Shown piece by piece: positions 8,531-27,659 of a DNA stretch of 64,000 nucleotides. The DNA is from Verrucomicrobiota bacterium (GTDB lineage: Bacteria > Verrucomicrobiota > Verrucomicrobiia > Chthoniobacterales > UBA10450): positions 1,388-65,387 of the forward strand of contig QHNR01000106.1 of the NCBI GenBank assembly GCA_003218475.1, in the 5' to 3' direction. The notes under the pieces were generated by a model. That model was given only the letters and a program-made list of their open reading frames with translations, did not search any database and was not told where the DNA came from. The translations under genes were made by a program, and so were the position numbers. The stretch's first letter is position 1; the number at the start of each line of letters is the position of its first letter.

Positions 8531-10312
8531 ATGAAGTCTGGCAGTTTCTTCGGGGAGCTGAAAAGGCGTAACGTTTACAAAGTTGCCGTCGCTTATGCTG
8601 TCGTCGGGTGGCTCTTGATTCAGGTTGCTACGCAGGTTTTTCCGTTCCTGGATATTCCAAACTGGGCGATTCGCCTCGTCATTCTCGTGACTGCACTCGG
8701 TTTTCCTATTGCGCTGATTATCGCCTGGGCGTTCGAGCTCACACCTGAAGGAATTAGGCGAACCGAAGATGCCGATGCTGCGGGCCAACGTTCGCGCGGC
8801 GGAATTTGGATGGCGCTTGTTGTAACCGCGGCCGCGCTCTCGCTCGGTCTTTTTTTCCTCGGGCGCTACTCCGCTGGAAATGCGCGATCTCAGAACCCGG
8901 CTTCGCATGGCTCCGGCGCGGCAAGCAGCGAAGCGGTTACAGCTGTTCCTGAGAAGTCGGTCGCAGTTCTGCCATTGCTTAACGAAAGCGGTGACCCGAA
9001 GGACGAATATTTTTCGGATGGATTGTCGGAAGAACTGATCGCTGCTCTAGCACAAATCAACGGGCTGAAGGTCATTGGTCGCAGTTCTTCATTCCGTTTC
9101 AAAGACAGGCATGAGGACCCGAAAGCGATAGGCGAGAAGCTAGGCGTAAGCACGCTCCTCGAAGGCACGGTGCGCAAGCAGGACGATCGTGTACGCATCG
9201 TGGCTGAACTCGTGAACGCCGCAGACGGCATCGCGCTCTGGACGCGAACGTTCGATCGCGAATTAAGAGATATCTTCACAGTTCAGCAGGAAATCGCCAG
9301 GGCCGTCGCTGAGTCACTCAAGGTGACCTTGCTTGGTTCGAATGAAAAATCGGCCCAGATGGCGTCGAACAGCGTGGAAGCACACAACGCTTACCTTCAG
9401 GCCCATTTCCATTTCCAGCGCCGTAACGTCGAGGATTACCGCAAAGCCATCACTTATTTCGATCAGGCGATCCAGCTCGACCCGAATTATGCCTTGGCTT
9501 ACGCAGAACGTTCGGAGGTGTGGACCATGATTGGGGACCTCACCGGCCAACGCGCGACCGCGTACCCGAAAGCGCGCAGCGATGCTGAGAAGGCCGTCGA
9601 GATCGCGCCCGTCCTGGCCGAGGCGCACGCGGCCCTGGGCTGGGTCCGCTTTTTTGGCGAATGGAAATTTGCCGAAGGCCTGAGCGAGCTAAACCGTGCG
9701 AAAGAACTTTCTCCGGCAAATCCCACCGCCAACGATCTGCTGGCGCGAGTAATCGTTTACCTGGGGCGAATTGATGAGGCCGAGCGACAGGCGCGGCAAG
9801 CGGTGGAACTCGATCCGTTGTCTGTTGCGACACAATTCAACCTGGGGCGGGTGCTTTTCATTGCGGGAAAACTTGACGAGGCAGACGCGGCTGGACGCAA
9901 AGTGGCAGAGTTACAGCCGTCAGCGTCTTCCAGCCACCGATGGCAGGTGCTCGTCGCTGTGCAACGTGGCGACGGCGAGACCGCACTACGCGAAGCGCAA
10001 TTGGAGCCTGACGACGGGTTTCGTCCTTTCGAACTGGCGCTCGCACATTACGTACGTGGCGACCGCAAGGCGGCGGACGCGGCTTTGGCCGAGCTCGTGG
10101 CCAATAGCAGAAATGGCCTGGCCTATCAAATCGCCCAAGCGTACGCCGTACGAGGCGAGATAGAGAAAGCTTTCGAATGGTTGCAAATCTCGTTTGATAA
10201 TCACGACGGCGGGACGCTTAGCCTTGGCGTCGACCCATTATTGCGTGGCTTGCACGACGATCCTCGCTACAAGAACTTGCTCGCCAAACTCGGTTTACCT
10301 GGACCGTCATGA
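8531..10312 (+). CDS. paralog P1: 2-TM 'ELKRRNVYKV' anchor + TolB-N-like (COG5616-type) domain + TPR repeats
   Basis: FFGELKRRNVYKVAVAYAVVGWLLIQ...AWAFELTPEGIRRTED, then a TM segment, then KSVAVLPLLNESGDPKDEYFSDGLSEELI...LEGTVRK. TPR-like repeats follow, ending in the tail DPLLRGLHDDPRYKNLL. Confidence 0.8.
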   Translation: MKSGSFFGELKRRNVYKVAVAYAVVGWLLIQVATQVFPFLDIPNWAIRLVILVTALGFPIALIIAWAFELTPEGIRRTEDADAAGQRSRGGIWMALVVTAAALSLGLFFLGRYSAGNARSQNPASHGSGAASSEAVTAVPEKSVAVLPLLNESGDPKDEYFSDGLSEELIAALAQINGLKVIGRSSSFRFKDRHEDPKAIGEKLGVSTLLEGTVRKQDDRVRIVAELVNAADGIALWTRTFDRELRDIFTVQQEIARAVAESLKVTLLGSNEKSAQMASNSVEAHNAYLQAHFHFQRRNVEDYRKAITYFDQAIQLDPNYALAYAERSEVWTMIGDLTGQRATAYPKARSDAEKAVEIAPVLAEAHAALGWVRFFGEWKFAEGLSELNRAKELSPANPTANDLLARVIVYLGRIDEAERQARQAVELDPLSVATQFNLGRVLFIAGKLDEADAAGRKVAELQPSASSSHRWQVLVAVQRGDGETALREAQLEPDDGFRPFELALAHYVRGDRKAADAALAELVANSRNGLAYQIAQAYAVRGEIEKAFEWLQISFDNHDGGTLSLGVDPLLRGLHDDPRYKNLLAKLGLPGPS

Positions 10313-10365
10313 ACGAAAGGCCTTGCTTTTTCGCGGAGCTCGGGGAAATGGGGAGCTTCTACTAG
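10309..10365 (+). pseudogene. orphan N-terminal stub of an anchor-type paralog
   Basis: The ATG overlaps the P1 stop (ATGA). It encodes MNERPCFFAEL..., matching the conserved FFxEL start of the anchor module, then diverges and stops after 18 codons. Confidence 0.35.
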
Positions 10366-10633
10366 CGGTAACGGTGGCGCATTGGTTTTCCGAACTAATA
10401 CTGAAGCACCAGCGCTATGTGCCTTGGAGGTAAGCAAGGCTCTTAAGAGCTATCCCAACTTACACGTTCTGAAACAAGGGATCGATCCGCACCGTGCCGC
10501 TAAACCAATCCGCTGGTCCTTTGCCGGATGGTTCTGAACCAACTCTTGATTTCCATTCTCAACTCCATTGTTAACTGACTCCTGTTTGTCATGACGACTA
10601 CTTCTTAAATTGCTTTCAGGAAACATTTGTTCA

Positions 10634-11389
10634 ATGCGTCCGCCGCCATCAAAGCACGCTTCCAAGTTCGGTGTGATCAAGCTTCACTTTCGAAAAAGAA
10701 CCCGTACCCTCACGTACGAACAAAAAGGCGGTTGGCAAAGCGCGGCGGACGTCAACGGCATCAGCCTCGATGCGCATATTCATGCGCTCTATGGGCTGGT
10801 TTTACAACACGCCGGGAAAAACATTCTCATGATTGGGTGCGGCGGCGGCACTCTCGGTACCATGCTGGCTCGAGCAGGGAAGCGGGTATCGATTGTTGAG
10901 ATCGACCCAGTCTCAATCAGGCTCGCAAAGCGCTACTTTGGTCTGCCGCGAAACATCGCCTGTCATGTCGACGATGGATTGGCATTCATGAGAAAAAAAC
11001 GCCGGCACTATGATTTGCTCATTGTGGACGCTTTTACCGGCGAGAAGATTCCCGCCCACATGAAGGATGCGGCATTCTTTGAGGCGGCAGGCCGCTGCCT
11101 GCGACGCAACGGCCTGGCCATGGTCAATGTTTGTCTGGAACGGAAGTCAGATCCGACGGCAGATAGAATCGCTGCGGGATTCAAAGAAAGGGGCTGGTCC
11201 GTGCGGCTCTTGGATAGCCCTGGCGCGGAGCGTAACGCTATTGTCCTAGCGGGAAACGTGAAGAACCTGCGACGGCCCAGGTTGCTGCTCGTGCCTGAAG
11301 CCGGCGCGAAACAGACGGGCAAAGAATTGACCGCCATGCGCTTCCGCCGGCGACGGTCGATTTTCCGAAACCGCGGAAGGGTCCGGTGA
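10634..11389 (+). CDS. spermidine synthase-like class I SAM-dependent methyltransferase
   Basis: ILMIGCGGGTLGTMLA (motif I), VEIDP, DLLIVDAF. ORF 10610..11389 with the first ATG at 10634. Confidence 0.6.
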   Translation: MRPPPSKHASKFGVIKLHFRKRTRTLTYEQKGGWQSAADVNGISLDAHIHALYGLVLQHAGKNILMIGCGGGTLGTMLARAGKRVSIVEIDPVSIRLAKRYFGLPRNIACHVDDGLAFMRKKRRHYDLLIVDAFTGEKIPAHMKDAAFFEAAGRCLRRNGLAMVNVCLERKSDPTADRIAAGFKERGWSVRLLDSPGAERNAIVLAGNVKNLRRPRLLLVPEAGAKQTGKELTAMRFRRRRSIFRNRGRVR

Positions 11390-11396
11390 CAGCTCC

Positions 11397-12758
11397 TTAG
11401 ACTGCTACCGCCTTCACCAATCTTTTGACGAGAAGATACACAGGATAACTGACTGCAATTCCTATCATAGCATAGAGGCTGTTTTGGGTGCTACTCACGA
11501 TGAAGGCAATCAACAGCAGACCGGCCCCAAGAAATACGATTGTTGGAAGCACCGGATAGCCGTGCGCTCTGAACGGTCGCGGAAGGTCCGGCTCTCTCCA
11601 ACGCAAAATAAAGATCGTGCCGAAGGCCGTTACATCTACCAGCACACTTAGGAACGCGGTAAAACCGAATAGCCTGTCGAAGCTGCCGAGGCCTGCGAGC
11701 ATGATGGCTACCAACGCAGTCACGAGCAAGGCCGTGGTAGGTGTACCTCCGGTATTTACCCTTGCGGCGGAATAAAAAAAGAGGCCATCGCGACTAAGAG
11801 CGAACATCACTCGCGGTGTAAAAAGGAAGGAGGCGTTGATAATTCCAAGGAGGGACACTAACATGATGCTAGTCACGATCTGGCTGCTATAACCGCCGAA
11901 GATGAGCTGGGCGGCATCTGCCGCCGCCAGTTTTGAGCCTGCTAGCTTCGACATCGGTAACGCATGTAGTATGGCGAGGTTAATGAGCACATAGATCGCC
12001 ATCACCAAAGCGACGCCGGTAAACAGCGAACGAGGAATGCTTTTCGCTGGATCAGTGTTCTCCTCCGAGAAGTAAACCGGTGCATGCCAGCCGGAGTAGG
12101 TGCCAAGAATGCTTTGCATCGACAAAGCGATGGCCACAAACAAAAGCTTCGGATCGGAAAAGAGCGACGGCTTTGCGCTTGGGGCAACGCTTAGATTCGG
12201 GCTGAAAAGAAAGCAGGCAGCGATGATGACGAAGAAAGCGAGGACTTTGAACAAGCTCATGATCTCTTGAGCGCGGCTACCCACACGCAGGCCGAGCCAG
12301 TGAAACGCGGTGAAGAAGATCAAGACAGCAATTGCCGCCGGCGTTACGACACTGGGATTATAAGAGAAGACTCCAGCGGCGTATTCGGTTAACGCAACTG
12401 CCAAATACGCCATCGAACTGGTGCGAAGGAGCCAATCACTCCAGCCGACAAGAAATCCACCGAACTCACCATACGCGCGACGAGCATAAACGTAAGGTCC
12501 GCCGTCCAGCGGCAGCATTGTGCCGAGCTCAGCATAGGTATTCGCACCGGCGAAAGCATACAGTCCGGAGACTATCCATGCGCCCATGATGAGTCCGCTG
12601 TGACTGAGGTGGGCCGCGACGCTCCCTGGAATCCGCAGAATGCCGATGCCGATTGTTCCGCCAATGCCGACCGCCACGCCAAAGGTGACTCCGAGGATGC
12701 GAAGCAACCGTTCTTTGCTGGACGACGGCGTATTAACAAAGGCTGGCTTCCTCTCCAT
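11397..12758 (-). CDS. APC-family amino acid permease
   Basis: 453 aa and about 12 predicted hydrophobic helices. N-terminal GVAVGIGGTIGIGILRIPG motif is typical of amino-acid/polyamine/organocation transporters. Confidence 0.8.
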   Translation of the reverse strand: MERKPAFVNTPSSSKERLLRILGVTFGVAVGIGGTIGIGILRIPGSVAAHLSHSGLIMGAWIVSGLYAFAGANTYAELGTMLPLDGGPYVYARRAYGEFGGFLVGWSDWLLRTSSMAYLAVALTEYAAGVFSYNPSVVTPAAIAVLIFFTAFHWLGLRVGSRAQEIMSLFKVLAFFVIIAACFLFSPNLSVAPSAKPSLFSDPKLLFVAIALSMQSILGTYSGWHAPVYFSEENTDPAKSIPRSLFTGVALVMAIYVLINLAILHALPMSKLAGSKLAAADAAQLIFGGYSSQIVTSIMLVSLLGIINASFLFTPRVMFALSRDGLFFYSAARVNTGGTPTTALLVTALVAIMLAGLGSFDRLFGFTAFLSVLVDVTAFGTIFILRWREPDLPRPFRAHGYPVLPTIVFLGAGLLLIAFIVSSTQNSLYAMIGIAVSYPVYLLVKRLVKAVAV

Positions 12759-12870
12759 GCGTTCGGCTTATCCGATTCCGCGCTACGCGGCAAGAGCACA
12801 GGACCACGCCACGTCGATCTGGACTTTGCTCTGCCTTCTGTACAATTAGCCGGCCGATTACTGGCGGAAC

Positions 12871-14709
12871 GTGAATCTAAGCAATTTCCTAGCCGAACTG
12901 AAGCGGCGCAATGTCGTCCGCATGGCTGGGCTTTATCTCGTCGGCGCATGGCTGCTCACTCAGGTCGCGAGCACCGTCCTGCCGATGTTTGGCGCTCCGG
13001 ATTGGTTGCCCCGCAGCATCGTCAGCCTGCTGGCAATTGGTTTCGTTCCGACGCTGATCTTTAGTTGGGTCTTCGAACTGACCCCGCAAGGCTTGAAGCG
13101 CGATGAGGACGTAAGGCCGGAGGAATCAATCGCGCCACAAACTGCGCGGCGCATGAATCGCATGATCATCGCCGTGCTGCTGCTCGCACTCGGATATTTT
13201 GTGTTCGACAAATTTGTCCTGACGCCACGGCGCGAAGCGGCGCTCCTTGCGGCTCGGACATCGACGGAACCCAAATCTGTACCCAGCGCCAAGTCCGTCG
13301 CCGTGCTGGCCTTCGCCAATCTCAGCGACGACAAGGGCAGCGAATATTTTTCAGACGGAATCAGTGAGGAGTTGCTGACTGTGCTGCAAAAAATTCCCGG
13401 CTTGCACGTCGCCGCGCGGACCTCAGCGTTTTCCTTCAAAGGCAAGAATGCGACGGCGCAGGAGATCGGGCAGAAACTCGGCGTGGCGCGTCTGGTCGAG
13501 GGAAGTGTGCGCAAGGCCGGCGACGTTGTGCGTATCGCGGCCCGGCTCACTCGCACGGACACGGGCGAGCAACTTTGGTCAGAAAATTTTACGCGCGATT
13601 TGAAGGACGTGTTCGCCGTCGAAACCGAACTCGCCCAGACCATCGTCGGGCAGTTGAGCGGTCAGCTCACGGGTGGCGCCGCGGATCCGGCTGCGAAGGC
13701 GGAAATTCAAGCGCAGGTGCAGGCGGCGGAAAAGGGCGGGACGAAAAATGTGGAGGCCCACGAGCATTATCTGCAGGGCCGGTTTTATAGTGATCGCCAT
13801 TCGGAAAAAAGCGCTGCTGAGGCCCTCGCTGCTTATCAACAGGCAGTGGAGCTGGACCCCGCCTTCGCGCTCGCATGGGCGGGCCTTGCCCTAACGCACG
13901 TTTGGTACTGCGAGTTTTCCACCGAGGCGGGACGAACCGGTTTCGATACCCATCTGGCAGGAGCGCGAGAAGCAACGGCAAGGGCTTTGTCCCTCGAGCC
14001 TAACCTGCCGGAAGCGTTGCTCGCCCGCTCGGAGATTGAGCTCAATTTCGATTTTGACTGGAAAGGTGCGGCCGAAACATTACGAAAGGCGCTGAGTCTG
14101 GCCCCCGCAGATCCGGCGCTCCGAATCGCCGCGGGCAACCTTGAAACAGCTCGCGGGGATATGACTCGGGCCATCGACCTCTATCGCCAGGCCGTCGCGT
14201 TGGATCCCGTTAACCCGCGAGCCCGTTCGTTCCTGGCGTTCAACCTGGCGGTGGCCGGTCGGTTTTCCGAAGCGCGGGCGGAATTTCCGAGGGTTGTGGA
14301 GTTGAATCCGGCGGCGCCTTGGGCCCATGCCGGTCTCGGTCTCGCCTTCCTCATCGAAGGAAAGTTCGAGGAGGCGGCGGTCGCTGCGCGAGACGATGCG
14401 GGCGAGTGGGCCCGGCTTCTCATAGTGGCATGCGCCTATTGGGGCGAGAAACGAATCCCGGAATCAGATGCGGCGCTTGCTCAGTTAACCGCGACCTTCG
14501 CCGATACGGCAGCTTACCAGGTCGCCGAGGTCTATGCGTATCGCGGGGACAAGGATCAGGACTTCGAGTGGCTCGAGCGCGCGCGCCGGCAGCGCGACGG
14601 GGGTCTGGCCGGTATGCGGAGGGATCCGCTCCTCGCGAACCTAAAAACGGACCCGCGCTGGAATGCATTCTTGCAAACGATCGGCCTGGCCGACGACCAA
14701 TTGAAATGA
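12871..14709 (+). CDS. paralog P2: 2-TM anchor + TolB-N-like + TPR
   Basis: GTG start. FLAELKRRNVVRMAGLYLVGAWLLTQ...SWVFELTPQGLKRDED, KSVAVLAFANLSDDKGSEYFSDGISEELL, TPR region, tail DPLLANLKTDPRWNAFL. Confidence 0.8.
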   Translation: MNLSNFLAELKRRNVVRMAGLYLVGAWLLTQVASTVLPMFGAPDWLPRSIVSLLAIGFVPTLIFSWVFELTPQGLKRDEDVRPEESIAPQTARRMNRMIIAVLLLALGYFVFDKFVLTPRREAALLAARTSTEPKSVPSAKSVAVLAFANLSDDKGSEYFSDGISEELLTVLQKIPGLHVAARTSAFSFKGKNATAQEIGQKLGVARLVEGSVRKAGDVVRIAARLTRTDTGEQLWSENFTRDLKDVFAVETELAQTIVGQLSGQLTGGAADPAAKAEIQAQVQAAEKGGTKNVEAHEHYLQGRFYSDRHSEKSAAEALAAYQQAVELDPAFALAWAGLALTHVWYCEFSTEAGRTGFDTHLAGAREATARALSLEPNLPEALLARSEIELNFDFDWKGAAETLRKALSLAPADPALRIAAGNLETARGDMTRAIDLYRQAVALDPVNPRARSFLAFNLAVAGRFSEARAEFPRVVELNPAAPWAHAGLGLAFLIEGKFEEAAVAARDDAGEWARLLIVACAYWGEKRIPESDAALAQLTATFADTAAYQVAEVYAYRGDKDQDFEWLERARRQRDGGLAGMRRDPLLANLKTDPRWNAFLQTIGLADDQLK

Positions 14710-14892
14710 GCGCCCGCTAAATGCCTAACGAGTCGCGCTTCGGCGATAAGATAATTCTGCACTCTGAGCGATGAACTCTCGCCATTTCGGTTCCGAATTG
14801 CGTCGGCACAATGCTGACAAAGTCACCTTCGCGAATGTAGTCGACTAATTCAGTTCGTTAAGTCTCTGGTTTCCGGATACAAATACTTGCCA

Positions 14893-15620
14893 ATGCTGGC
14901 CCCCGAGTCTGCCTCCGACGTAAAATTCGAGATTGGTCATGTCTTGTTCATCGACATCGTGGGTTACTCCAAGCTGCTCATTCACGAGCAGAGCGAGCAG
15001 ATGCAGACGTTGCGAGAAATCGTGCGCGGCACGGAGCAGTTCCGCCTGGCTGAAGCCGAAGGCAAACTGCTGCGCTTACCGACCGGCGATGGTGGCGCGC
15101 TTGTGTTTCGCACTAGCCCCGAAGCGCCGGTCCGCTGCGCGCTGGAAATCAGTAAGGAGCTCAAGAAGCATCCCGAGCTTCGGGTGCGAATGGGAATTCA
15201 CAGCGGTGCGGTCAATGAAATCAGCGATCTGAACGAACAAGCCAACATTGCCGGCGCTGGCATCAACATCGCGCAGCGGGTTATGGATTGTGGCGATGCC
15301 GGTCACATCCTGCTATCACGGCATGTCGGGGAAGATTTGGAGCAATATCCGCGGTGGCGCTCGCTTCTGCGCGATCTTGGTGAGTGCGAAGTGAAGCACG
15401 GCGTCCGCATCTCGTCCTTCAATATTTCGCCATCACAGCAGCGTGGGCGGGCGAGAAGAAGCTTGCCTTGCAACAACTGGAAGCTGGGCTGCGTGCTCCC
15501 GCCGCATCATGGGCGCTGAGCTACGGTGCCTTAAAACTGCACCCCTTCTGGGACCCGCTCCGCGGCGATCCGCGCTTCAAAAAAATCGTAGAGTCCCTCG
15601 CGCCGAAAGAGAGACACTAA
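14893..15620 (+). pseudogene. paralog P3: class III cyclase head joined out of frame to the family C-terminal tail (internal deletion of TM/TolB-N/TPR)
   Basis: Cyclase blocks LFIDIVGYS, LPTGDGGALVF, RMGIHSGAV, GINIAQRVMD run up to VKHGVRISSFNI (about 15420). From about 15425 a different frame reads ..ITAAWAGEKKLALQQLEAGL..YGALKLHPFWDPLRGDPRFKKIVESLAPK. This aligns with the last ~55 aa of P6. Confidence 0.65.
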
Positions 15621-15737: not shown

Positions 15738-15983
15738 CTAAACAGGCTGCAGTTTGCGCTCGTTCTGAATGACGATCGTCGGGTTCGGATTGCTCGGCGG
15801 CACTGGCAGGCCCTGCTGACGAATCACCTCGACGTGATCTGCCATTCCTGAGCGTGCCTTGTAAACGCAGTCCTCGATAGAGTGGCCGATGCCTGTGAAT
15901 CCCTCCAGATCCGGTGAGTAGAAGCCAAAAAAATCCGGATCGTCGGTCGCTTCGATAATGAGTGAATATGGCAATGTGATCAT
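15738..15983 (-). CDS. hicB: HicB-family antitoxin (short form, no obvious DNA-binding extension)
   Basis: MITLPYSLIIEATDDPDFFGFYSPDLEGFTGIGHSIEDC.. is a typical HicB N-domain. Starts 3 nt after the hicA stop. Confidence 0.8.
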   Translation of the reverse strand: MITLPYSLIIEATDDPDFFGFYSPDLEGFTGIGHSIEDCVYKARSGMADHVEVIRQQGLPVPPSNPNPTIVIQNERKLQPV

Positions 15984-15985
15984 TT

Positions 15986-16171: not shown

Positions 16172-16193
16172 CTGCTTGCAGCATAACAAGAGC

Positions 16194-17099: not shown

Positions 17100-19431
17100 G
17101 CTAGAGAGGGTTGCTCTCAGCCAGTAAAGTCCCGCTTCACGGCTGACGAGCACAAGGCGAAGCGCCTGGAGATCGCGCACGTGCTCTTCATGGACATCGT
17201 CGGCTACTCCATGCTGCTGACCGACGAACAATCGGAAGCGCTTCAGGAGTTGAACCAGATCGTGCGCAGTACCGAAGCGGCGCGCGAGGCCGAGGCTGCA
17301 GGAGAGCTTACTGTTTTGCCGACGGGCGATGGCATGGCGCTGGTTTTCGCCGGTTCAGTGGAACAGCCGGTCGAATGCGCCTTGGAGATTAGCCAAGCTT
17401 TGCGCGCGCAGCCGAGTCTGCCGGTGAGAATGGGAATCCACAGCGGCCCGATCCATCATGTGAAGGATGCAAACGGACGCGAAAACATTGCCGGCGTAGG
17501 CATCAACATCGCGCAGCGAGTGATGGATTGCGGCGACGCCGGCCACATTCTCGTGAGTAAACGCGTCGCCGACGATCTCGCGCAACACCGTCGATGGCAG
17601 CCGTACATCCATGAACTGGGCGACGTGGAAGTGAAACACGGAGTTGTTGTCTCGTTAGTTAATCTTTACGCCGAAACAATTGGCCAATCCCACGCCGCCG
17701 ACGCGGCTCGGAAAAGCCAGCGGCACCATCCGCAGTTCCAGAGTTAGGACACGCAAAGCACTCTCTCCGCTTGCCCGAGCGATCTTCATCGTCGCGGCGT
17801 TACTCCTCGCGCTTGCCATCGTGTCAGTAATTTTTGCGCCTGCGATCCTGCGGTCGCTCGGAAAAAGCCAGGTAACATCATCACCCCAGGTTCCAGCCAT
17901 TCCATCACCCCCGTCTCTCGCCGATACCATTAAGAGCGCAGTCGCCAAGCAGATCACCGATGAGTTGCAGGGCGAACTTTCTCGTAAGAAAAACGCCGCG
18001 GTCCAGCCACCTCCTACCGGTTCGGCGATCCCAGAGAAAAGCGTCGCTGTTCTGCCGTTCGACAATCTTAGCCGCGACCCGGACAACGCTTACTTTTGCG
18101 AAGGCGTGCAGGACGAGATTCTCACTCGTCTGGCAAAGGTATCAGACTTGAAAGTCGTTTCGCGTACATCGACGCAGCATTTCAAAAGCTCTCCAGATAA
18201 TCTGCCACAGATCGCGAAGCAGTTGGGTGTGATGCACGTCCTCGAAGGCAGTGTGCAGAAGTCTAACGATCAGGTGCGCGTGAATGTGCAACTGATCAAC
18301 GCGCTGACCGACGCGCATCTTTGGGCCGACACATACGATCGAAAGCTTACCGACATATTCGCGGTCGAAAGCGAGATCGCGAAAACGATTGCTGACACGC
18401 TACAGGCGAAGGTGACGGGCTCGGAGAAACAAATGATGGCGGCGCAGCCGACGAGCAACACGGAGGCGTACGAGCTTTATCACAAAGGAAAATCGCTGTG
18501 GGAGAAGCGTTCCGGTGATAATATTCCAAAAGCGATCGCCTATTACGAGCAGGCGATTGCGCGCGACCCGAATTATGCGCTGGCTTACACAGGTCTGGCC
18601 AAAGCCTATATCCTGCTCCCTTTTTACACGGGTGCGGACCGGCTCGATGCAGGCTCGAAGGCCAAAGACGCGGCACTCAAAGCTCTCCGTCTTGATCCCA
18701 ATCTGGCCGAAGCGCACGCCGCGCTCGGCAAGGTACTCTTTTTTCGCGAGATCGATTTGGCCGGCGCCATGCGCGAATACAAACGCGCGATCGAACTCAA
18801 TCCGAACGACGCGACGGCACATCATTGGTTCGGCAACGACAGCCTGGCAGCCCTCGGACGATTTGAGGAGGCCATTGCCGAAGGCAAGCGCGCGATTGAG
18901 TTAGATCCGCTGTCCACAGTTATTAACGTGGACCTGGGTGAAACCTTCTATTACGCCCACCGCTACGACGAGGCTGAGAGGCAAATGCGAAAAACCCTCG
19001 AGATTGATCCAACATCCTTCTACGCGCACTATAATCTCGGCATCGTTCTTCAATTAAAAGGCGACTTGTCTGGCGCGATTGCCGAATACAAAAAGGCAAA
19101 GCAATTAGGCGACAATCCACTTGTGTCGACGCTCTGCGCTCAGGCTAAAGCTCAGGCTGGCGACAAGGATGCCGCGCTGCGAATGCTGAGCGATCTCGAT
19201 AAGATAAGTCAGCACCGCGAAGTGGTTGGCTACTTGCGCGCTCTGCTTTATCTCAGCCTGAACAATAAAGATGAAGCACTGCGCTGGCTCGAACAGGGTT
19301 TCGCGGAACGCGATGGCTCCAATATCTGCTGGATCAAAGTCGATCCATTGCTCGATTCATTACACGGCGATCCGCGCTTCGAAGCGCTGGTCCAAAGAGT
19401 GGTCGCGCCGAAATCAGAAGCGAAGCAGTGA
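17100..19431 (+). pseudogene. paralog P4: class III cyclase head + TM + TolB-N-like + TPR, split by a frameshift and lacking an upstream ATG
   Basis: ORFs 17181..17747 and 17680..19431 overlap in different frames. Removing one base near 17682-17686 gives ..VNLYAETIG-NPTPPTRLGK.., a continuous protein. The homologous N-terminal region (..EHKAKRLEIAHVLFMDIVGYS) is open from 17100 with no ATG, and the first canonical start is the GTG at 17181. Confidence 0.7.
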
Positions 19432-19490
19432 AAATCGATAACTTCTTCGCCGAGCTGAAGCGACGCAATGTTTACAAGGTCACGGTTGCA
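19428..19490 (+). pseudogene. orphan N-terminal stub of an anchor-type paralog
   Basis: The GTG overlaps the P4 stop (GTGA). VKIDNFFAELKRRNVYKVTVA matches the anchor module for 21 codons, after which similarity ends. Confidence 0.45.
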
Positions 19491-19822
19491 GATATCGCCG
19501 CGCGCGCGATTATGAATCGTGCGGCGTCTCACGCCGCGCCGAAAGAGCTCGGCAGCGCCTGCGCCCATGCCACCGCCGCCATAAGAAGCTTGGTCAAAGT
19601 TATTCGTCCGCAAAAGATCTGAGCCAAGGCGATAAAGATGATTTACATCCGCACGCAAATTCGAGATCGAAATGAACCCTCAATTCGTTAGCTGCTTCGA
19701 CCCATCAGATGTTCATCGCCGCCCGCAGTTCGTTGCCTCCGCCGCGGTAGCAAAACAAAGAGCCGCCACGCGGCCCAGCGTGACGGCTGATTGCAAAATG
19801 CGGTTTGTCTCTTTCGGCAGTC

Positions 19823-21154: not shown

Positions 21155-21296
21155 TTTCTTCTCCTTTACATGTGAGTTATTTTGTTTTGTCCGCGCGGGA
21201 GGCCTGAGGCGACTCGCGCGTGGTCAGTTTTGCTCTGCCCGTTATGAAAGTCTTTAAGTCGTGGCTGAATTTTTCTGAATTGTTGTGAAAACGACG

Positions 21297-23270
21297 ATGC
21301 AAGCTACGCCTGCTCACCTCTACGAATTTGGCGATTTCCGGCTCGACACGGCGAAACGGGTCTTGCGGCGGCTGGATGGGACGATGGTGCCCCTCACCCC
21401 AAGAGTGTTCGAAACGCTCCTTTATATGGTGGAGCATCACGATACCGTCCTCGATAAGGAACGGCTGATGGAGGCGGTCTGGCCTGATTCGATCGTCGAG
21501 GAGAACAATCTGAGTCAGAACATCTCGACGCTGCGGCGTATTTTTGGCGAAACGCCGGGCTCACACGGCTATATCGTGACGGTTCCGGGTCGCGGCTATC
21601 GCTTCGTTGCGCAAGTTAGAGAGCAAACCGACAATGGCAGTGCCACAGTCGAGGCAGAGGAAGCAACAGGACCAACATCGCCAGAGAATGGAGCGGAAGC
21701 GGCTACAGGAAAGGATCGACAGCAGTCGCCCGGAAAGACTGGCGGGCTCTTGGCGCTCGCCGTTCTCGGTGTAATTGCGCTCACGGCCGCGTTCCTTGCG
21801 CGAGGCCCGAGCGTTCGCTGGCCTGAGAAACATAAGATCGCAAAGGCACCTCCGGCACCGTCGTCCGGCACGGTGACCGATATCGTGCGCTCGATCGCAG
21901 TCTTGCCGTTCGAAAACCTAAGCGGCAACCCCGAAAACGCATACTTTACTGATGGAATCCAGGAAGAGATCCTGATGCGTCTAGCGAAGATTGCCGATCT
22001 AAAAGTGGTCTCGCGGACGTCGACAGTGCGCTATAAGAGGTCGCCGGAGAATCTGCGCGAGATCGCGACGCAGCTCGGCGTTGCAAACGTCCTGGAAGGC
22101 AGCGTCCAACGCACCGCTGACCGGGTGCACGTAAACGTGCAGTTAATTAAAGCGGCAAGTGACACGCATCTCTGGGCGGAAGCGTACGACCGAAAGCTGA
22201 CCGACATTTTTGCCGTTGAGAGTGAAATTGCGAAAACGATCGCCGATAGCCTGCAGGCGAAGCTGACTGGCTCCGAGCGAAACGCAATCGCGGCGCAACC
22301 GACAGAGAACACGGAAGCGTATCAACTTTATTTACGGGGTCGGTATCTTTGGAACAGGCGCACGGGCGAAAATCTTAAAAAAGCGCTCGCCTATTTCGAG
22401 CAAGCAGCTGAGAAGGATCCCCACTACGCCCTCGCCTACGCAGGCATGGCCGATAGTTGCGTTTTGATTCCCATCTACGCCGCAGGAACTCCTCAAGACT
22501 ATCTTCCTCGCGCGCGAGTTGCCGCGCAAAAGGCAGTCGAGCTCGACGATACGCTGGCCGAAGCGCACACCTCCCTCGCCTACGTGTTCTTTTATGATTT
22601 CGAGTATGCCCAATCGGTAAAAGAATTCGAACGCGCGATTTCCCTAAATCCGAATTACGCGATGGCCCACCTGTGGTATGGCTTAGGCCCGCTTTCGGCG
22701 ATGGGAGAGTTCGACAGAGCTATCGCCGAGGAAAAACGAGCCCTCGAGCTCGACCCAGTCTCGCCGATCATCAATGCTGATCTCGGGACCGTTTACACGC
22801 TCGCGCGACGATACGACGAAGCGATTGCTCAATTGCGCGACACGGTGGAAATGAATCCGCAATTTCATGGGGGCCACCGGTGTCTTGGATGGGCACTGGA
22901 ATTGAAAGGCGCGACCGGTGAAGCGATTGCCGAATATCACAAAGCATTCGAGCTAAGTGACGATCCGATAATGCTCGCGATGCTGGCTCACGCCGAGGCG
23001 AGCATTGGGAAGCAAAATCAAGCCCGGCAAATACTGGGCCAGCTCACCGAAGAGGCCAAGGCCCGCTACGTGCCAGCATACGCTTTTGCCGTGATTTACC
23101 TGGCGCTTGGCGAAAAGGATCATGCGTTAGATTGGCTGGAACAAGCGGCTCGCGATCACGACGGTTTCTATATCAACCTCATCAAGTTCGAACCATTTCT
23201 CGATCCCCTGCGTGGTGATCCTCGTTTCGAAACGCTTGTTTCCAGAATCTTGTCCGGGCCTGTAAAGTAA
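21297..23270 (+). CDS. paralog P5: ToxR/CadC-type winged-helix DNA-binding head + TM + TolB-N-like + TPR
   Basis: YEFGDFRLDTAKRVLRRLDGTMVPLTPRVFETLLYMVEHHDTVLDKERLMEAVWP...GYIVTVPGRGYRF (OmpR/PhoB-type trans_reg_C). TM segment LLALAVLGVIALTAAFLA. RSIAVLPFENLSGNPENAYFTDGIQEEIL. Tail DPLRGDPRFETLV. An alternative GTG start lies at 21285. Confidence 0.8.
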   Translation: MQATPAHLYEFGDFRLDTAKRVLRRLDGTMVPLTPRVFETLLYMVEHHDTVLDKERLMEAVWPDSIVEENNLSQNISTLRRIFGETPGSHGYIVTVPGRGYRFVAQVREQTDNGSATVEAEEATGPTSPENGAEAATGKDRQQSPGKTGGLLALAVLGVIALTAAFLARGPSVRWPEKHKIAKAPPAPSSGTVTDIVRSIAVLPFENLSGNPENAYFTDGIQEEILMRLAKIADLKVVSRTSTVRYKRSPENLREIATQLGVANVLEGSVQRTADRVHVNVQLIKAASDTHLWAEAYDRKLTDIFAVESEIAKTIADSLQAKLTGSERNAIAAQPTENTEAYQLYLRGRYLWNRRTGENLKKALAYFEQAAEKDPHYALAYAGMADSCVLIPIYAAGTPQDYLPRARVAAQKAVELDDTLAEAHTSLAYVFFYDFEYAQSVKEFERAISLNPNYAMAHLWYGLGPLSAMGEFDRAIAEEKRALELDPVSPIINADLGTVYTLARRYDEAIAQLRDTVEMNPQFHGGHRCLGWALELKGATGEAIAEYHKAFELSDDPIMLAMLAHAEASIGKQNQARQILGQLTEEAKARYVPAYAFAVIYLALGEKDHALDWLEQAARDHDGFYINLIKFEPFLDPLRGDPRFETLVSRILSGPVK

Positions 23271-23294: not shown

Positions 23295-25328
23295 ATGAAT
23301 CCGAAGGAATTCTTCGGCGAGGCAAAGCGACGCAACGTTTACAAAGTCGCCGTTGCTTATGCCGTCGCCGGTTGGGCGCTCGCCCAAGGCATCGCACAGG
23401 TTTTTCCGGTGTTCGGAGTTCCAAACTGGATCATTCAACTGATTGTCTTGTTGATCGTCATTGGTTTTCCGATTGCGCTTGTTCTGGCGTGGGTGTTTGA
23501 GCTGACGTCCGAAGGACTAAAACGAACCGAGGATGCCGATCTTGCGCGGCCCCGGGCAAAATCTCAAGCTTGGGTTTATGTCGCGGTTATCGGCGCTGTT
23601 TTGTCGATCGGATTATTTTTTGTCGGCCGATATACCGCCGTAAAGGCAAACGCGTCGGAAAATAGTTTCGTAAAATCAATTGCCGTGCTGCCGTTTGAGA
23701 ACATAAGCGACGACAAACAAAATAGTTACTTCGCCGACGGCGTGCAGGACCAAATCCTTACCAACCTGGCCAAGGTCTCCGAGCTGAAAGTCATCAGCCA
23801 CACAAGTGCACGCCAATACAAGAGCGGTGTGCAACGGAACCTGCGCGAGATCGGTAAACAACTCGGCGTTGCGTATATCGTTGAAGGTTCTGTCCAGCGC
23901 TCGCGGGACCGGCTCCGGATTAATGCGCAATTGATCGATGCTCGAACCGATACACACGTCTGGGCGGAGACCTATGATCGCACCGCGGCGGATTTGTTCG
24001 CAATTCAGAGCGAGCTTGCGCAATCGATTGTCGCACAGCTCAAGGCAAAACTTTCGCCCCAACAAAAAGCCGAGATTGAAGAACGTCCAACCCAGGATTT
24101 GGTCGCGTTTGAGCTTTATCTTCAAGCGAAGACAATCATCGACAGTTATATCAACGCGACCGATGTGCGGGCCGCGCTGCTCCAGGCATTGAAGTCGCTC
24201 GACGAGGCAATCAAGCGCGATCCGAACTTCGTCTCCGCGTACTGTTATGTCGCGCTCGCGAACGACCTTCTTTACTTTTTCGATCTCGATGCAACTCCAG
24301 AGCGGATCACGCTGGCTGAAAATGCGGTGAACAATGCGTTGCGGCTCCGTCCCGATTCAGCGGAAGCCCGTTTCGCGCGGGCCGATTATCTCTTCCGATG
24401 CCTCCGCGACTACGATCGCGCGCTCGAAGAACTTGCCATTGCGCGACCCGGCTTGCCGAACAGCACGCCGTTTTTCATTCTCTCCGGTTACATCAATCGC
24501 CGTCGCAATCATTTTCCCGAAGCCGAACGCGATTTCTCCACGGCGTTTGCGCTCGATCCGCGGAACCCCAATGCTTACAATCTTCTCGCCGACACTTACG
24601 TGCTTGAACGCCGGTTGCAGGAAGCGGTCCACGTCTATGACAATGTCCTCGCTGCCGGCGAAACTGTTCCGATCGTCTACTTCCGGCGCGCTTCGAGCAT
24701 CCAATCCGGAACCGGCGACATCCGCCCACTTCGCGATATTCTGGCAAAATTTCCGGACATGGAATTTGCCGGCGGTCAAACACCGGTCCGGGTTTGGATC
24801 TCGATGCTCGACCATGACTATACGCGAGCGGAAAAATTCCTGGCCGATTCGCCGCGAAAAGATTTTCAAGACATCGATTTCAGCTTTTATTTCCCGAAAT
24901 CGTGGTACGAAGCGATGATAACGCGCGAGAAAGGCGACGCCGCCAAAGCGACGTCTGCTTTTCGCGAATGCCGCGAAATTCTCGCGCAACGATTGGTCGT
25001 TAAGCCGGAGCACGCGCGAACAATCGCCGTACTCGCGCAGGTTGATGCCAATCTTGGCCAAAAAGATTTGGCGATTAGCGAGGCGCAACATGCCATCGAT
25101 CTGATGCCGACATCGAAAGATATTTACGACGGCGCTCTGGTGTTAGAAGGCCTTGCTCAGGTTTACACTTGGAGCGGTGAACACGACCGCGCCATCGAAG
25201 TGCTTCAAAAACTTGTGTCGATGCCAGGCTACACCAACTACGGCCGTTTGAAGCTTTATCCGTTGTGGGCTCCGCTGCGCGGCAATCCTAAGTTTGAAAA
25301 CATCGTAACGTCCCTTGGTCCGAAATAA
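23295..25328 (+). CDS. paralog P6: 2-TM anchor + TolB-N-like + TPR
   Basis: FFGEAKRRNVYKVAVAYAVAGWALAQ..AWVFELTSEGLKRTED, KSIAVLPFENISDDKQNSYFADGVQDQIL, tail YPLWAPLRGNPKFENIV. Confidence 0.8.
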   Translation: MNPKEFFGEAKRRNVYKVAVAYAVAGWALAQGIAQVFPVFGVPNWIIQLIVLLIVIGFPIALVLAWVFELTSEGLKRTEDADLARPRAKSQAWVYVAVIGAVLSIGLFFVGRYTAVKANASENSFVKSIAVLPFENISDDKQNSYFADGVQDQILTNLAKVSELKVISHTSARQYKSGVQRNLREIGKQLGVAYIVEGSVQRSRDRLRINAQLIDARTDTHVWAETYDRTAADLFAIQSELAQSIVAQLKAKLSPQQKAEIEERPTQDLVAFELYLQAKTIIDSYINATDVRAALLQALKSLDEAIKRDPNFVSAYCYVALANDLLYFFDLDATPERITLAENAVNNALRLRPDSAEARFARADYLFRCLRDYDRALEELAIARPGLPNSTPFFILSGYINRRRNHFPEAERDFSTAFALDPRNPNAYNLLADTYVLERRLQEAVHVYDNVLAAGETVPIVYFRRASSIQSGTGDIRPLRDILAKFPDMEFAGGQTPVRVWISMLDHDYTRAEKFLADSPRKDFQDIDFSFYFPKSWYEAMITREKGDAAKATSAFRECREILAQRLVVKPEHARTIAVLAQVDANLGQKDLAISEAQHAIDLMPTSKDIYDGALVLEGLAQVYTWSGEHDRAIEVLQKLVSMPGYTNYGRLKLYPLWAPLRGNPKFENIVTSLGPK

Positions 25329-25352
25329 ATTTCTTCAGGAGTTGGAAAAAAC

Positions 25353-27659
25353 ATGGGCAATTTCTTTTTAGAACTGAAGCGGCGCAACGTTTACAAGGTT
25401 GCGGTCGTTTACGCGCTCGTTTCGTGGCTGCTAATCGAGATTGCGTGGATTGCGTTGCCGATGTTCGACGCGCCTGAGTGGATGCTCAGCACATTCATCG
25501 TATTCGTCGCGCTCGGTTTTATTCTTGCCGTAATCATCTCGTGGGCTTTTGAAATGACGCCGGAGGGAATGAAACGAACGGCGGACATTACGCCGGGCGA
25601 GGTCCTCCCTTATTGGAGCAAACGGAAGTTCACGGCATTCATCACCGGCGTTGCGGCCGTTGCGTTCCTCCTGCTTGCCTACCAATTGTTGCGATTCAGC
25701 CCGGCGCTCCAACAGCGGTCTACGGCAAAACGCACTGATAAAATTTTGATTCAGGGCAACCAGGCCGGCACGCAAATCGTGGAAGGCCAGGCAGACGGAG
25801 CGATGCGCGCTGAATATTCCTATAACGATCGCGGCCGCGGCGATCACATCATGGCAACCTGGAAACTCGATGGCGCCGGTGTGCCGGTTGAATACGAAGG
25901 CCACGGCAATGATTACATGAAGGCACCCATCGAAGAACATTTCGAAATAAAAAATGGCAGGGCGAGTTGGAAGAACCGCAGCGAACAGGGCGAGCAGGCC
26001 GTGACCGGCGAAGCGTTCTACCTGCCGATGAATGCGCCACCGGAATTTTTCGCTGTGCTCGCGCGAGCCTTATTGAAAGCGTCAAACCACAAACTCGCAC
26101 TTTTGCCTGCCGGAGAAGCGACAATTGAACGAGCAGCGAGAGTAACATCGGCTAATTCGGAACTAACTGAATACCGCGTGAGTGGCCTCGGATTTTCGCC
26201 GCGATCAATCTGGCTGGATCGACAGGGGCGAGCGGCGTCGGTCTCCTCCTGGTTTTCTGTTTTACCTGAGGGACGCGAGTCAGCGATTGATCAGCTCCGG
26301 ACGGCGCAACAAAAGACCGATGCCGTCTGGTCGGAACGCATCGATCGCACCCTGGCACACAAACCAAATGGCGACCTCGTGATCCGCAACGCGCGCTTGT
26401 TTGATCCGCGCGATCTCAGCGTTACTCCCGGGACCGGTGTGCTCATCCGCGGCGAGCGCATCGTGCGCGTCGCGCCTGATGCCGATCTAAAACCATCTGC
26501 GAACGCGGCAATCATCGACGCGCACGACTGTTTTCTCATGCCGGGTTTGTGGGACGATCACCAACATTTCAGTGACAACGACGGCGCGCTTGATCTCGCA
26601 AACGGCGTGACAAGCGCGCGAGACATGGCCAATGACACCGATACTTTTCTCCAACGCGTGGAGCGGTTTGATAATGGCAGCGAGCTCGGGCCGCGCGTAT
26701 TAAAAGCCGGAATCGTTGATGGCACTGGCGAATTCGCGGGCCCAACCAAAATGCGTGTCGACACCGCCGAGCAGGCAATTCAGGACATCGACTGGTATGC
26801 CGATCACGGTTACGCACAGCTCAAGATTTATTCGTCAATCAAACCCGAACTCGTTCCGGTCATGGCCGATCATGCGCATGCCCGCGGCATGCGCGTAAGC
26901 GGTCACGTGCCTGCGTTCATGTCCGCGCGCCAATTCGTCGAAGGCGGGGCGGACGAGATTCAGCATCTCAACTTTATCCTCCTCAATTTCCTTTTCCCAG
27001 AAGTGCAGGAAACGCGCAATCGCGATCGCTTCATCAAAGTGGCAGAGCACGCGCGCGATTTTCCGCCCGACAAACCGGAAGTGAGCGAGTTCATCCAATT
27101 CCTCAAGCACCATGACACCGTGCTCGATCCAACGATAAGCATTTTCGAAGGTCTGTTTTGCGGCAATCCGAGTGCGATCACGCCCGGTCTGGAACGAATC
27201 GTGCCCCGCTTTCCGTCGCAGGTGCGCCGCGCGATGTTGAGCGGCGCGCTCGACGTTCCAAAAGACAAAGAGGCTGCTTATCGCGAAGCTTTCCCGGCAA
27301 TGTTGCGCCTGTTAAAGGCAATCCACGACGCCGGCGTGACGATTATCCCGGGAACCGATGCACTGGCCGGATACACGCTCCACCACGAGCTCGAGCTTTA
27401 TGTGCAGGCCGGTATCGCTCCCGCTGAAGTTTTACAAATGGCAACGTGGACGCCCGCTTTGGTTATGGGTGTGAATAAAGACCGCGGCGTCATCGCCCCG
27501 GGGAAACTGGCTGACATGATTCTGGTGGATGGCGACCCGACGAAAAACATTCGGGACATCAACAACATCACCACGGTAATCAAGGACGGAAAGGTTTACG
27601 ACCCAGCAGACATTGAGAAAGCGCTCGGGATCACGCCGCGCGAAACCCAGCCGAAGTAG
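25353..27659 (+). CDS. paralog P7: 2-TM anchor + TM + beta-rich domain + metal-dependent amidohydrolase
   Basis: FFLELKRRNVYKVAVVYALVSWLLIE..SWAFEMTPEGMKRTAD. Amidohydrolase blocks follow: IRNARLFDP, DAHDCFLMPGLWDDHQHF, GADEIQHLNF, IPGTDAL, GKLADMILVDGDP. Confidence 0.8.
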   Translation: MGNFFLELKRRNVYKVAVVYALVSWLLIEIAWIALPMFDAPEWMLSTFIVFVALGFILAVIISWAFEMTPEGMKRTADITPGEVLPYWSKRKFTAFITGVAAVAFLLLAYQLLRFSPALQQRSTAKRTDKILIQGNQAGTQIVEGQADGAMRAEYSYNDRGRGDHIMATWKLDGAGVPVEYEGHGNDYMKAPIEEHFEIKNGRASWKNRSEQGEQAVTGEAFYLPMNAPPEFFAVLARALLKASNHKLALLPAGEATIERAARVTSANSELTEYRVSGLGFSPRSIWLDRQGRAASVSSWFSVLPEGRESAIDQLRTAQQKTDAVWSERIDRTLAHKPNGDLVIRNARLFDPRDLSVTPGTGVLIRGERIVRVAPDADLKPSANAAIIDAHDCFLMPGLWDDHQHFSDNDGALDLANGVTSARDMANDTDTFLQRVERFDNGSELGPRVLKAGIVDGTGEFAGPTKMRVDTAEQAIQDIDWYADHGYAQLKIYSSIKPELVPVMADHAHARGMRVSGHVPAFMSARQFVEGGADEIQHLNFILLNFLFPEVQETRNRDRFIKVAEHARDFPPDKPEVSEFIQFLKHHDTVLDPTISIFEGLFCGNPSAITPGLERIVPRFPSQVRRAMLSGALDVPKDKEAAYREAFPAMLRLLKAIHDAGVTIIPGTDALAGYTLHHELELYVQAGIAPAEVLQMATWTPALVMGVNKDRGVIAPGKLADMILVDGDPTKNIRDINNITTVIKDGKVYDPADIEKALGITPRETQPK

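Follow-up and report, generated by a model that had tools for sequence, protein, structure and literature searches.

A tandem array of CadC-like modular membrane proteins in a soil Verrucomicrobiota genome, with a head replacement, decayed members and an undescribed two-helix membrane module

Introduction

Most of what is known about membrane-integrated one-component receptors of the ToxR/CadC type comes from a handful of enteric regulators. CadC, a well-studied sensor of pH and cadaverine, consists of a winged helix-turn-helix (wHTH) domain, a transmembrane (TM) segment, an α/β domain and a tetratricopeptide repeat (TPR) domain (PMC9214523), and its sensor is an α/β sandwich, made up of a β-α-β crossover, a three-strand meander and a helix, which is followed by the TPR helical domain (Kinch et al. 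2022, PMC9214523). The ToxR/ToxS and VtrA/VtrC "co-component" cassettes, which are fast-evolving, combine membrane-tethered wHTH proteins of the CadC family with periplasmic partners encoded next to them (Kinch et al. 2022, PMC9214523). The locus analyzed here comprises seven open reading frames (ORFs), P1 to P7, on the + strand at positions 8531-27659 of a stretch of 64,000 nucleotides (nt) from a Verrucomicrobiota bacterium (contig QHNR01000106.1, positions 1,388 to 65,387; hereafter the window); the source is a soil metagenome-assembled genome (MAG) with locus tags DME88_, and its sister MAG is DME98. An earlier note on this DNA, made from the sequence alone, had recognized seven related membrane proteins within 19 kb, and all seven ORFs are present. 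They probably belong to a family of transmembrane one-component receptors of the CadC type that is modular and evolves by birth and death, and they are encoded in a tandem array that is prone to rearrangement.

The architecture itself is already recognized by automated annotation, and the prototype of its wHTH form is CadC. Relatives carry Joint Genome Institute (JGI) names such as "TolB-like protein/…TadD/…class 3 adenylate cyclase" or "…wHTH"; the name "TolB-like protein" presumably corresponds to COG5616, a name that stands only in a list in the one paper that mentions it, and literature searches on COG5616, on TolB-like + cyclase + TPR, on CadC + TolB + TPR and on Udaeobacter + cyclase found no characterization. 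What is new is the replacement of a membrane anchor by a wHTH head, an array that turns over at an extreme rate in an abundant soil lineage and a large undescribed N-terminal membrane module. The CadC-style sensor design is hugely expanded in uncultured soil Verrucomicrobia, where it is combined with a cyclase, a wHTH domain, a kinase or a two-helix module.

A periplasmic body shared by five members

In five of the proteins, P1, P2, the P4 body, P5 and P6, the stretch from (K/R)S(I/V)AVL through the DPL..L.GDPRF tail aligns collinearly, with blastp E values of 1e-56 to 1e-177. P4 and P5 are the closest pair (53% identity), and the remaining pairs are 31-38% identical (e.g., P2 and P1, 35% across 611 amino acids [aa], E 3e-101). 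The homology of these five bodies is genuine and well past chance. Failure of the ectodomains to align, or heads unlike cyclase and wHTH domains, had been named in the earlier note as grounds for abandoning its proposal; the alignments reach E ≤ 1e-56 in all cases and the profiles of both heads were matched. TPR families were found across all five bodies (Pfam), and the common tail, also described before, corresponds to NCBIfam NF047558 TPR_END_plus (cut-off 32 bits), with scores of 48.1 for P1, 35.2 for P2, 57.9 for the P4 body, 65.4 for P5 and 32.9 for P6. The body was previously thought to be common to all members but P3, which holds for five of the seven, as the body of P7 is an amidohydrolase.

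The intact members with this body are P1 (8531..10312, + strand, 593 aa), P2 (12871..14709, + strand, 612 aa) and P6 (23295..25328, + strand, 677 aa), which carry a two-helix hairpin anchor and a third TM helix (TM3) before the TolB-N/CadC-like α/β domain, the TPR region (lengthened in P6) and the TPR_END tail, and P5 (21285..23270, + strand, 661 aa), in which a CadC/OmpR-type wHTH, a linker and one TM segment precede the α/β domain, TPR region and tail. The orthologues of P5 begin at the ATG at 21297, which would give 657 aa. P7 (25353..27659, + strand, 768 aa) joins the anchor and TM3 to a periplasmic amidohydrolase body (Amidohydro_1, E 3.4e-19, 69.7 bits versus a gathering score of 25), and neither TolB-N nor TPR was found in it by Pfam. 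Exact database matches exist for five proteins (P1, P2, P4 body, P6 and P7; accessions within PYJ32578–PYJ32590), that of P1 being PYJ32578.1 from a Verrucomicrobia MAG.

Residues 120-220 of P6 matched FlgO (E 2.5e-7, 31.1 bits versus a cut-off of 22.6) and, below the cut-off of 22.4 bits, TolB_N (E 2.5e-3, 18.3 bits); neither family matched the other paralogues at E ≤ 0.01 (Pfam). A profile of the α/β domain found nothing among PDB sequences, and full-length P5 and P6 found TPR and wHTH matches only, so that fold comparison alone was informative. An AF2 model of the P5 α/β domain, with a mean confidence (pLDDT) of 83.8 and the order β-α-β-α-β-β-β-α, matched by Foldseek, at a probability of 1.00, PelC (1e-7), the TolB N-domain (query TM-score [TMq] up to 0.70), FlgT, GNA1162, LpoB and the CadC sensor (3ly7, 3ly8, 3ly9 and 3lya; E 2e-6 to 6.5e-6, TMq 0.61-0.63). 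The model clearly has the TolB-N/PelC/CadC-sensor fold. The claim that no functional characterization of the ectodomain exists was therefore too strong, given this fold and the CadC layout. A profile of the ~135-aa α/β block had at least 8,000 matches, the best of which have no precomputed Pfam domain and bear the JGI name "TolB-like protein". Stand-alone α/β "TolB-like" proteins of 150-240 aa were also seen on contigs of 160-310 kb (e.g., P0189, P0221, P0253 and P0291), so the TPR part is not obligatory.

Hydropathy prediction gave one TM segment each for P4 and P5 (residues 154-172 in P5), and hydropathy together with charge distribution gave three TM helices for the anchor proteins, namely the two-helix hairpin and TM3. 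In the latter, K/R residues are abundant at the N-terminus (ELKRRN) and in the TM2-TM3 loop and absent from the TM1-TM2 loop. Because of this positive-inside pattern and the three TM helices, all bodies are predicted to be periplasmic. The description of the anchor as a 2-TM element thus fits the hairpin, although the proteins that carry it have three TM helices and the body is still periplasmic.

Comparison with described regulators

P5 resembles E. coli CadC in its order of a wHTH domain, a disordered linker, one TM segment, a periplasmic α/β domain of the same secondary-structure order and TPR-like helices, and the NCBIfam CadC model aligns to both its head and its body. However, P5 reaches 97.4 bits versus an equivalog cut-off of 400 (NF007540), the identity in structural alignments is 10-12%, the P5-type TPR region is much longer and TPR_END-capped, and the sensor is common to cyclase- and anchor-headed tandem paralogues. 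No cadBA- or lysP-like genes were found in the neighborhood of P5. On the grounds of the score (97 versus 400 bits) and the lack of a cadBA context, P5 is taken not to be a CadC orthologue.

The bodies show partial, sub-threshold alignments to the NCBIfam models of CadC (on P6, residues 85-430, E 3.7e-16), of HilA/EilA and of TIGR04510. HilA/EilA of Salmonella and E. coli likewise have an OmpR/ToxR-type wHTH and a TPR-containing C-terminal region, and their model (PRK12370, NF009037) aligned to P5 residues 203-496 at 112 bits, to the P4 body at 69.7 bits and also to P1, all below its cut-off of 589. HilA is described as a soluble cytoplasmic regulator without a TM segment, unlike P5. The "putative peptide modification system cyclase" model TIGR04510 aligned to the bodies at 33-58 bits, below its cut-off of 400, and no radical-SAM or peptide-modification genes were found near the array. 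The TolB-N fold group (TolB, PelC, LpoB, FlgT/FlgO and GNA1162) has its fold in common with the α/β domain, but its members are lipoproteins or soluble periplasmic adaptors, whereas in the array this domain is attached to the inner membrane, continues into TPRs and is coupled to signaling heads.

A wHTH head in place of the anchor in the P5 lineage

The head of P5 is a Trans_reg_C domain (E 4.2e-17, 62.4 bits versus a cut-off of 26.2; Pfam) and matched the DNA-binding domain of CadC (5ju7, E 4e-10) as well as those of ToxR and OmpR. A search with the P5 ectodomain, from which the best 120 relatives were taken, retrieved 43 wHTH-headed proteins (93-99% identity) and 68 anchor-headed proteins (77-96%) of ~585-593 aa. 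The latter are 77-89% identical to P5, apart from a few possibly chimeric sequences at 93-96%, and the similarity between P5 and the anchor-headed proteins begins exactly at (K/R)SIAVLPF. In a neighbor-joining tree, a shallow wHTH clade is nested inside a diverse anchor-headed clade, and P4 with its orthologue, the cyclase clade, is the sister group of both. At four-fold degenerate sites, P5 differs by 0.06-0.08 from its own orthologue, by 0.27-0.28 from an anchor-headed relative on a 41-kb contig and by 0.63-0.64 from P4. From these comparisons it is concluded that a wHTH-TM head replaced the anchor in the P5 lineage relatively recently, with the junction directly before (K/R)SIAVLPF. This replacement, whose ancestral form persists in relatives, amounts to a natural experiment; it marks a permissive fusion junction, which might be of use in designing chimeric receptors.

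The earlier note had placed a recent head swap elsewhere, between P4 and P5, and had proposed that a single periplasmic sensing module is linked to cyclic nucleotide (cNMP) synthesis, to transcription or to no obvious output. P4 and P5 are indeed the closest pair in the window, at 53% identity over 477 aa versus 31-38% for the others, and long conserved stretches are common to both, among them DRKLTDIFAVESEIAKTIAD(T/S)LQAK(V/L)TGSE, which is present as quoted. These stretches are, however, conserved family-wide (58-sequence consensus) and thus silent on recency; at 0.63-0.64, the four-fold sites of P4 and P5 are near saturation; anchor-headed relatives far closer to P5 exist; and neither cyclase gene is intact in this genome. 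In addition, identity between the TPR regions of P4 and P5 is no more than 25-58% in windows of 40 aa, which makes one sensing module with one signal unlikely. A recent P4/P5 swap is therefore hard to credit; head swapping on one scaffold is real, but the recent case that can be demonstrated is wHTH for anchor.

Between P5 and its anchor-headed relative on the 41-kb contig, protein identity is 94% in the α/β domain and 83% in the TPR region. Gene conversion was considered as a source of the 94-98% α/β identity between P5 and anchor-headed relatives and was rejected, as four-fold divergence is alike in the α/β domain (0.28) and the TPR region (0.27). Since silent divergence is equal in the two parts, the higher protein conservation of the α/β domain reflects stronger purifying selection. 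The TPR region is a rapidly evolving surface and possibly a determinant of specificity. Across the clade of P5 and its anchor-headed relatives (P0345-P0416, compared with window positions 21888-23267), the α/β domain was seen to be ~95-98% conserved and the TPR region to drift to 62-85%, with equal silent divergence.

A separate observation concerns P5 and its 97%-identical orthologue (21285-21884 compared with L003 10001-10590): the heads are 86% identical in aa with a four-fold divergence of 0.20, compared with 0.06-0.08 in the ectodomain, and the differences, judged by eye, are found mostly in the linker that joins the wHTH domain to the TM segment.

The two-helix anchor module

The anchor spans ~85 aa with the pattern FFxELKRRNVYKV – TM1 – P..P.W – TM2 – W.FE.TPEG.KR and is encoded, on the + strand, at 8531-8790 (P1), 12871-13130 (P2), 23295-23555 (P6) and 25353-25610 (P7). 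It had been assigned to P1, P2 and P6, correctly for these, but P7, whose anchor is 60% identical to that of P1 (blastp), had been overlooked, so that four of the seven members are anchored. AF2 predicted helices at residues 15-40, 44-70 and 90-119 with a pLDDT of 69.5. An anchor profile matched 18,400 representatives of 50%-identity clusters (12,339 at E ≤ 1e-10). Nothing above noise was found in Pfam even at E ≤ 10, no N-terminal match in NCBIfam, no neighbor in PDB by Foldseek, nothing in PLSDB plasmids by tblastn and no precomputed Pfam domain on the 120 best matches listed. It remains true, as stated earlier, that the module lacks any described family, and with its 18,400 cluster representatives it merits a family definition and a functional test.

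Charged motifs to either side of the anchor helices are invariant (E9, R12, R13 and N14; W66, F68, E69, T71, G74 and R77), and among the paralogues in the window identity is 48-64% in the anchor, 37-47% in the α/β domain and 21-30% in the TPR region. A genome scan with the anchor motif found it mostly in MAGs of Chthoniobacterales, Ca. Udaeobacter and Spartobacteria. The neighborhoods (±4 kb) of 77 anchors in other genomes contain 144 anchor ORFs, which usually abut head to tail, and 125 of the 144 include the α/β domain. Those without it include stand-alone anchors of 125-171 aa and anchors joined to SnoaL/DUF4440 (L006, L074 and L076), to an amidohydrolase (L017 and L044, as in P7) or to an unknown body. 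In one protein of 1,586 aa among the 125 (L057; Pkinase–anchor–TolB-N–TPR), the anchor is internal and follows a Ser/Thr kinase domain. The idea of one scaffold with several N-terminal modules is thus borne out by the cyclase, wHTH and anchor forms in the window and extended elsewhere by the kinase-plus-anchor form. Some proteins (loci L006-L082) were seen to carry two anchor copies. No hidden head was found by Pfam in the N-terminal extensions that precede some anchors (L021, L056, L049, L043, L009 and L068), most of which are presumed to result from ORF calls that overlap the gene upstream.

The anchor is the best-conserved part of the paralogues, occurs alone, is fused to unrelated bodies and is found once between a kinase and a sensor. 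These properties tentatively suggest that it may not be a passive element but an undescribed autonomous domain for membrane signaling or partner recruitment, or a sorting tag; the odds are nevertheless against so active a role. If true, the CadC-like sensors would have in the anchor a fourth "output", which in the abundant soil lineage Ca. Udaeobacter would be dominant, and the arrays would be a diversifying receptor repertoire. For the anchor-headed majority, candidate roles are signaling through juxtamembrane motifs, modulation of paralogues with other heads, tethering of scaffolds or enzymes, and sorting.

The last of these candidates can be put more specifically: the anchor could be a sorting or processing tag that is read by a dedicated membrane partner or protease, with a logic like that of exosortase or rhombosortase signals, and the array would then be a cargo family. 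Many paralogues per genome, an almost always extreme N-terminal position of the module, heterogeneous passengers, invariant charged motifs flanking the helices and 18,400 cluster representatives without a described family would fit such a tag. Yet no sortase-like candidate for such a partner turned up next to the examined arrays, stand-alone anchors of 125-171 aa have no cargo, and in L057 the module is internal, after the kinase domain, all of which makes this explanation improbable.

Tethering leads to a broader alternative, in which the family consists of inner-membrane-tethered periplasmic scaffolds or enzymes: the anchor would be the ancestral tether, the body would bind envelope machinery or substrates as in PelC/PelB, LpoB, TolB and FlgT/FlgO, and the cyclase, wHTH and kinase heads would be occasional secondary gains. 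Anchor-headed forms do dominate, both among the anchor ORFs (body in 125/144) and among the best relatives of P5 (68/120); the anchor also tethers amidohydrolases and SnoaL/DUF4440 domains; the top structural neighbors of the α/β domain are ring or adaptor proteins; and this domain also stands alone (150-240 aa, on long contigs). Against this, the body has repeatedly been joined to three classes of true signaling heads, the closest relative of the same architecture, CadC, is a proven sensor, and conservation of the anchor (48-64%, the highest of any paralogue module) exceeds what a passive tether would need. A scaffold family is consequently considered rather unlikely, though a less remote prospect than a sorting tag.

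Cyclase heads and decayed genes

The heads of P3 and P4 were assigned to the Pfam family Guanylate_cyc (E 5.4e-7 and 5.3e-7, 29.8-29.9 bits versus a cut-off of 21.9), so that the cyclase heads and the winged helix read from the sequence earlier were all confirmed by profiles. The closest solved structure to the P4 cyclase domain is the Rv1900c/LipJ cyclase domain (1ybt, E 2e-11), and both heads align best with Rv1900c (LipJ)-type cyclases. In comparison with 1ybt, both metal-binding Asp residues (FmDIVG and tGDG) are conserved, as are an Asn and an Arg (INIAQR); residue roles are those that we take to apply in Rv1900c. The substrate-specifying pair is, however, Leu/Asn instead of Lys/Asp (ATP) or Glu/Cys-Ser (GTP), and both copies are defective.

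P3 is an out-of-frame deletion remnant. A 210-aa ORF (14887..15519, + strand) encodes the whole of a class III cyclase homology domain; this head is 61% identical to that of P4 and 80-83% identical to the heads of intact cyclases of 694 and 670 aa in L003, and the body has been deleted, as proposed. The frame breaks at …EVKHGVRI, after which the ORF reads nonsense across what is left of a P6-like TPR_END tail, its final ~66 codons, which lie in a different frame (15384..15620, + strand) and are 44% identical to P6 residues 615-677 (E 3e-15; NF047558 20.6 bits, under the cut-off). P4 is a pseudogene in this genome. Its head (17139..17747, + strand) is a cyclase homology domain that has lost its start (ACG at 17139-41; the longest ORF runs from a GTG, 17181-17747), and its body (17680..19431, + strand) is a 583-aa ORF in the +1 frame with linker, one TM segment, α/β domain, TPR region and tail. 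DNA alignment with the intact orthologue P0045 in L001 identified three lesions, namely ATG→ACG at 17139-41, the loss of 3 nt and an extra C at 17684/5. The intact orthologues P0045 and P0051, both metagenomic, have 765-767 aa and read ...VNLYAETIGNPTPPSRLGK..., and in the DME98 sister MAG the matching body has been called headless, from an internal start (P0056). Programmed frameshifting in P4 was ruled out by the plain extra C in GGCCAAT, the lost start codon and the unshifted intact orthologues.

Three further remnants add to the decay of the array. Directly after the P1 stop, ~57 codons of a cyclase head (10313..10483, + strand; GNGGALVFRTNTEAPALCALEVSKALK, then stop codons) are 49% identical to residues 49-104 of the P3 head (E 6e-12, tblastn). 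An isolated tail fragment from another family member (16161-16328, + strand; LRLDPMFDLLQNDPRFQKLAESEAPK) matches the P3 tail and the P4 and P5 tails (blastp/tblastn; NF047558 19.9 bits, under the cut-off). The start of an anchor gene (19428..19541, + strand), identified by tblastn with P1 and P7 and by DNA alignment with L001, has a GTG that overlaps the P4 stop and retains the first ~18 codons (VKIDNFFAELKRRNVYKV) before running into unrelated sequence. As both cyclase copies are defective, cNMP output from the locus is doubtful in this genome. In L001, too, the anchor of the 571-aa anchor-headed gene (2905-3010) seemed, in a DNA alignment read by eye, to have lost 1 nt after NFFAELKRRNVYKVA, which would interrupt it; members of the family may be decaying outside this window too.

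Since the window comes from a MAG, the pseudogenes, fragments and mosaic relatives could in principle be artefacts of metagenome assembly across near-identical paralogues. The 94-98% α/β identity of P5 and its anchor-headed relatives invites chimeric joins, several of the intermediates at 93-96% come from short-read catalogues, and the anchor in L001 also has a 1-nt frameshift. Assembly errors would nonetheless have to account for three independent lesions in P4, a headless body in a second MAG (P0056), fragments that are visibly decayed (10313-10483, 49% identical to P3 and followed by stops; the start at 19428, which runs into unrelated sequence), paralogues in the window that at 31-53% identity are too divergent for mis-assembly, and orthologous arrays on contigs of 41-417 kb from independent studies. 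An artefact is hence the least probable of the explanations considered, and scarcely to be entertained.

Turnover of the array in related genomes

The survey of related genomes that had been suggested was carried out, and arrays were found to be common in relatives, with differing gene order and content. On contigs of close relatives (L001-L004; Chthoniobacterales/Ca. Udaeobacter, one of L002-L004 being 417 kb long), the order in L001 is an intact P4, the 571-aa anchor gene with its frameshifted anchor, a P1-like gene (592 aa), a P7 orthologue (80% identity) and a 172-aa gene. L002-L004 carry three tandem cyclases, a P6 orthologue split into 500 + 141 aa, the Peptidase_S74 gene described below, the P5 orthologue, genes of 592 and 594 aa (the latter the P1 orthologue), an anchor/SnoaL gene, a 173-aa gene and ApbA. 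In L003, the P1 orthologue is 78% identical and positioned downstream of P5. The right flank is kept between these contigs and the window (the 173-aa gene in L001-L004, ApbA in L002-L004), while the members and their order differ; another array surrounds an anchor-headed relative in L005. Tandem arrays are the norm for this family in Chthoniobacterales/Ca. Udaeobacter, and the pattern is that of a hot spot evolving by birth and death, in which members duplicate, recombine with their paralogues, are deleted and decay.

A model for the family

Under the reading that we consider the most probable, that of a modular family of CadC-type receptors in the inner membrane, the common periplasmic body follows the two-part CadC sensor design, with a TolB-N-like α/β sandwich and a TPR superhelix capped by the TPR_END helix pair. 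The cytoplasmic or membrane part is exchangeable, consisting of a wHTH and one TM segment in P5, a class III cyclase and one TM segment in P3 and P4, and the anchor with TM3 in P1, P2, P6 and P7. The TPR/α-β ectodomain may bind a periplasmic peptide, protein or envelope component and change its oligomeric state, and such oligomerization could drive any head that is activated by dimerization. Dimerization or oligomerization activates ToxR-type wHTH domains, class III cyclases and Hanks kinases alike; because this applies to all known heads of the family, one ectodomain could drive any of them, and head replacement would be viable at one junction. P5 arose from an anchor-headed ancestor in which a wHTH-TM module displaced the anchor.

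Several points weigh against this model. The similarity to CadC is remote (10-12% structural-alignment identity; 97 versus 400 bits), so that its function is not transferable. Most members are anchor-headed without a recognizable output, and their primary role may not be signaling; the TolB-N-like PelC, LpoB, FlgT and TolB mostly serve envelope machines as structural or adaptor modules rather than as sensors. The cyclase heads deviate from both known substrate pairs. The neighbor-joining tree is identity-based and has no support values, and the anchor-headed "intermediates" at 93-96% identity show window patterns compatible with chimeric assembly and were excluded from the firm evidence. Finally, the single-base lesions in a MAG could be population variants, which is countered by the headless P4 body in two MAGs.

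Neighboring genes

P7 is followed after 3 nt by a gene for a 173-aa, single-TM protein (27663-28184) with zero Pfam matches, and this in turn, with a gap of -1 nt, by an ApbA/PanE ketopantoate reductase gene (28184-29119). The spacing from P5 through P6, P7 and the 173-aa gene to ApbA (24, 24, 3 and -1 nt) is compatible with co-transcription. In this tight succession of P5, P6, P7, a 173-aa membrane protein and ApbA, the locus resembles the ToxR/ToxS and VtrA/VtrC cassettes, and a partnership of that kind between P5 and P6 or P7, or the downstream neighbors, is a conjecture. It differs from them in that no VtrC/ToxS-like lipocalin partner was found by P5 and that P5 keeps the CadC-type helical domain, which is absent from those systems.

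Between P1 and P2 lie genes for a spermidine-synthase-like methyltransferase (10610-11389, + strand) and an APC-family amino-acid permease (11397-12758, - strand); CadC works with the lysine permease LysP. The gap between P3 and P4 contains genes that are unrelated to the family, encoding a HicB-like protein and HicA (15738-16195, - strand; HicA_toxin 3.7e-14, HicB_lk_antitox 7.4e-5; Pfam) and a GIY-YIG protein (16493-16780, + strand; GIY-YIG 7.7e-15; Pfam), and their presence where P3 was deleted may mark an insertion or rearrangement event. Also unrelated to the family is a 443-aa protein encoded between P4 and P5 (19823..21154, - strand), a repeat protein with a Peptidase_S74 (endosialidase chaperone) domain (E 3e-12; Pfam). 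It has NTxxG-type repeats, its C-terminal Peptidase_S74 domain is tail-fibre-like, and a Peptidase_S74 gene was found directly upstream of P5 in L002-L004 as well.

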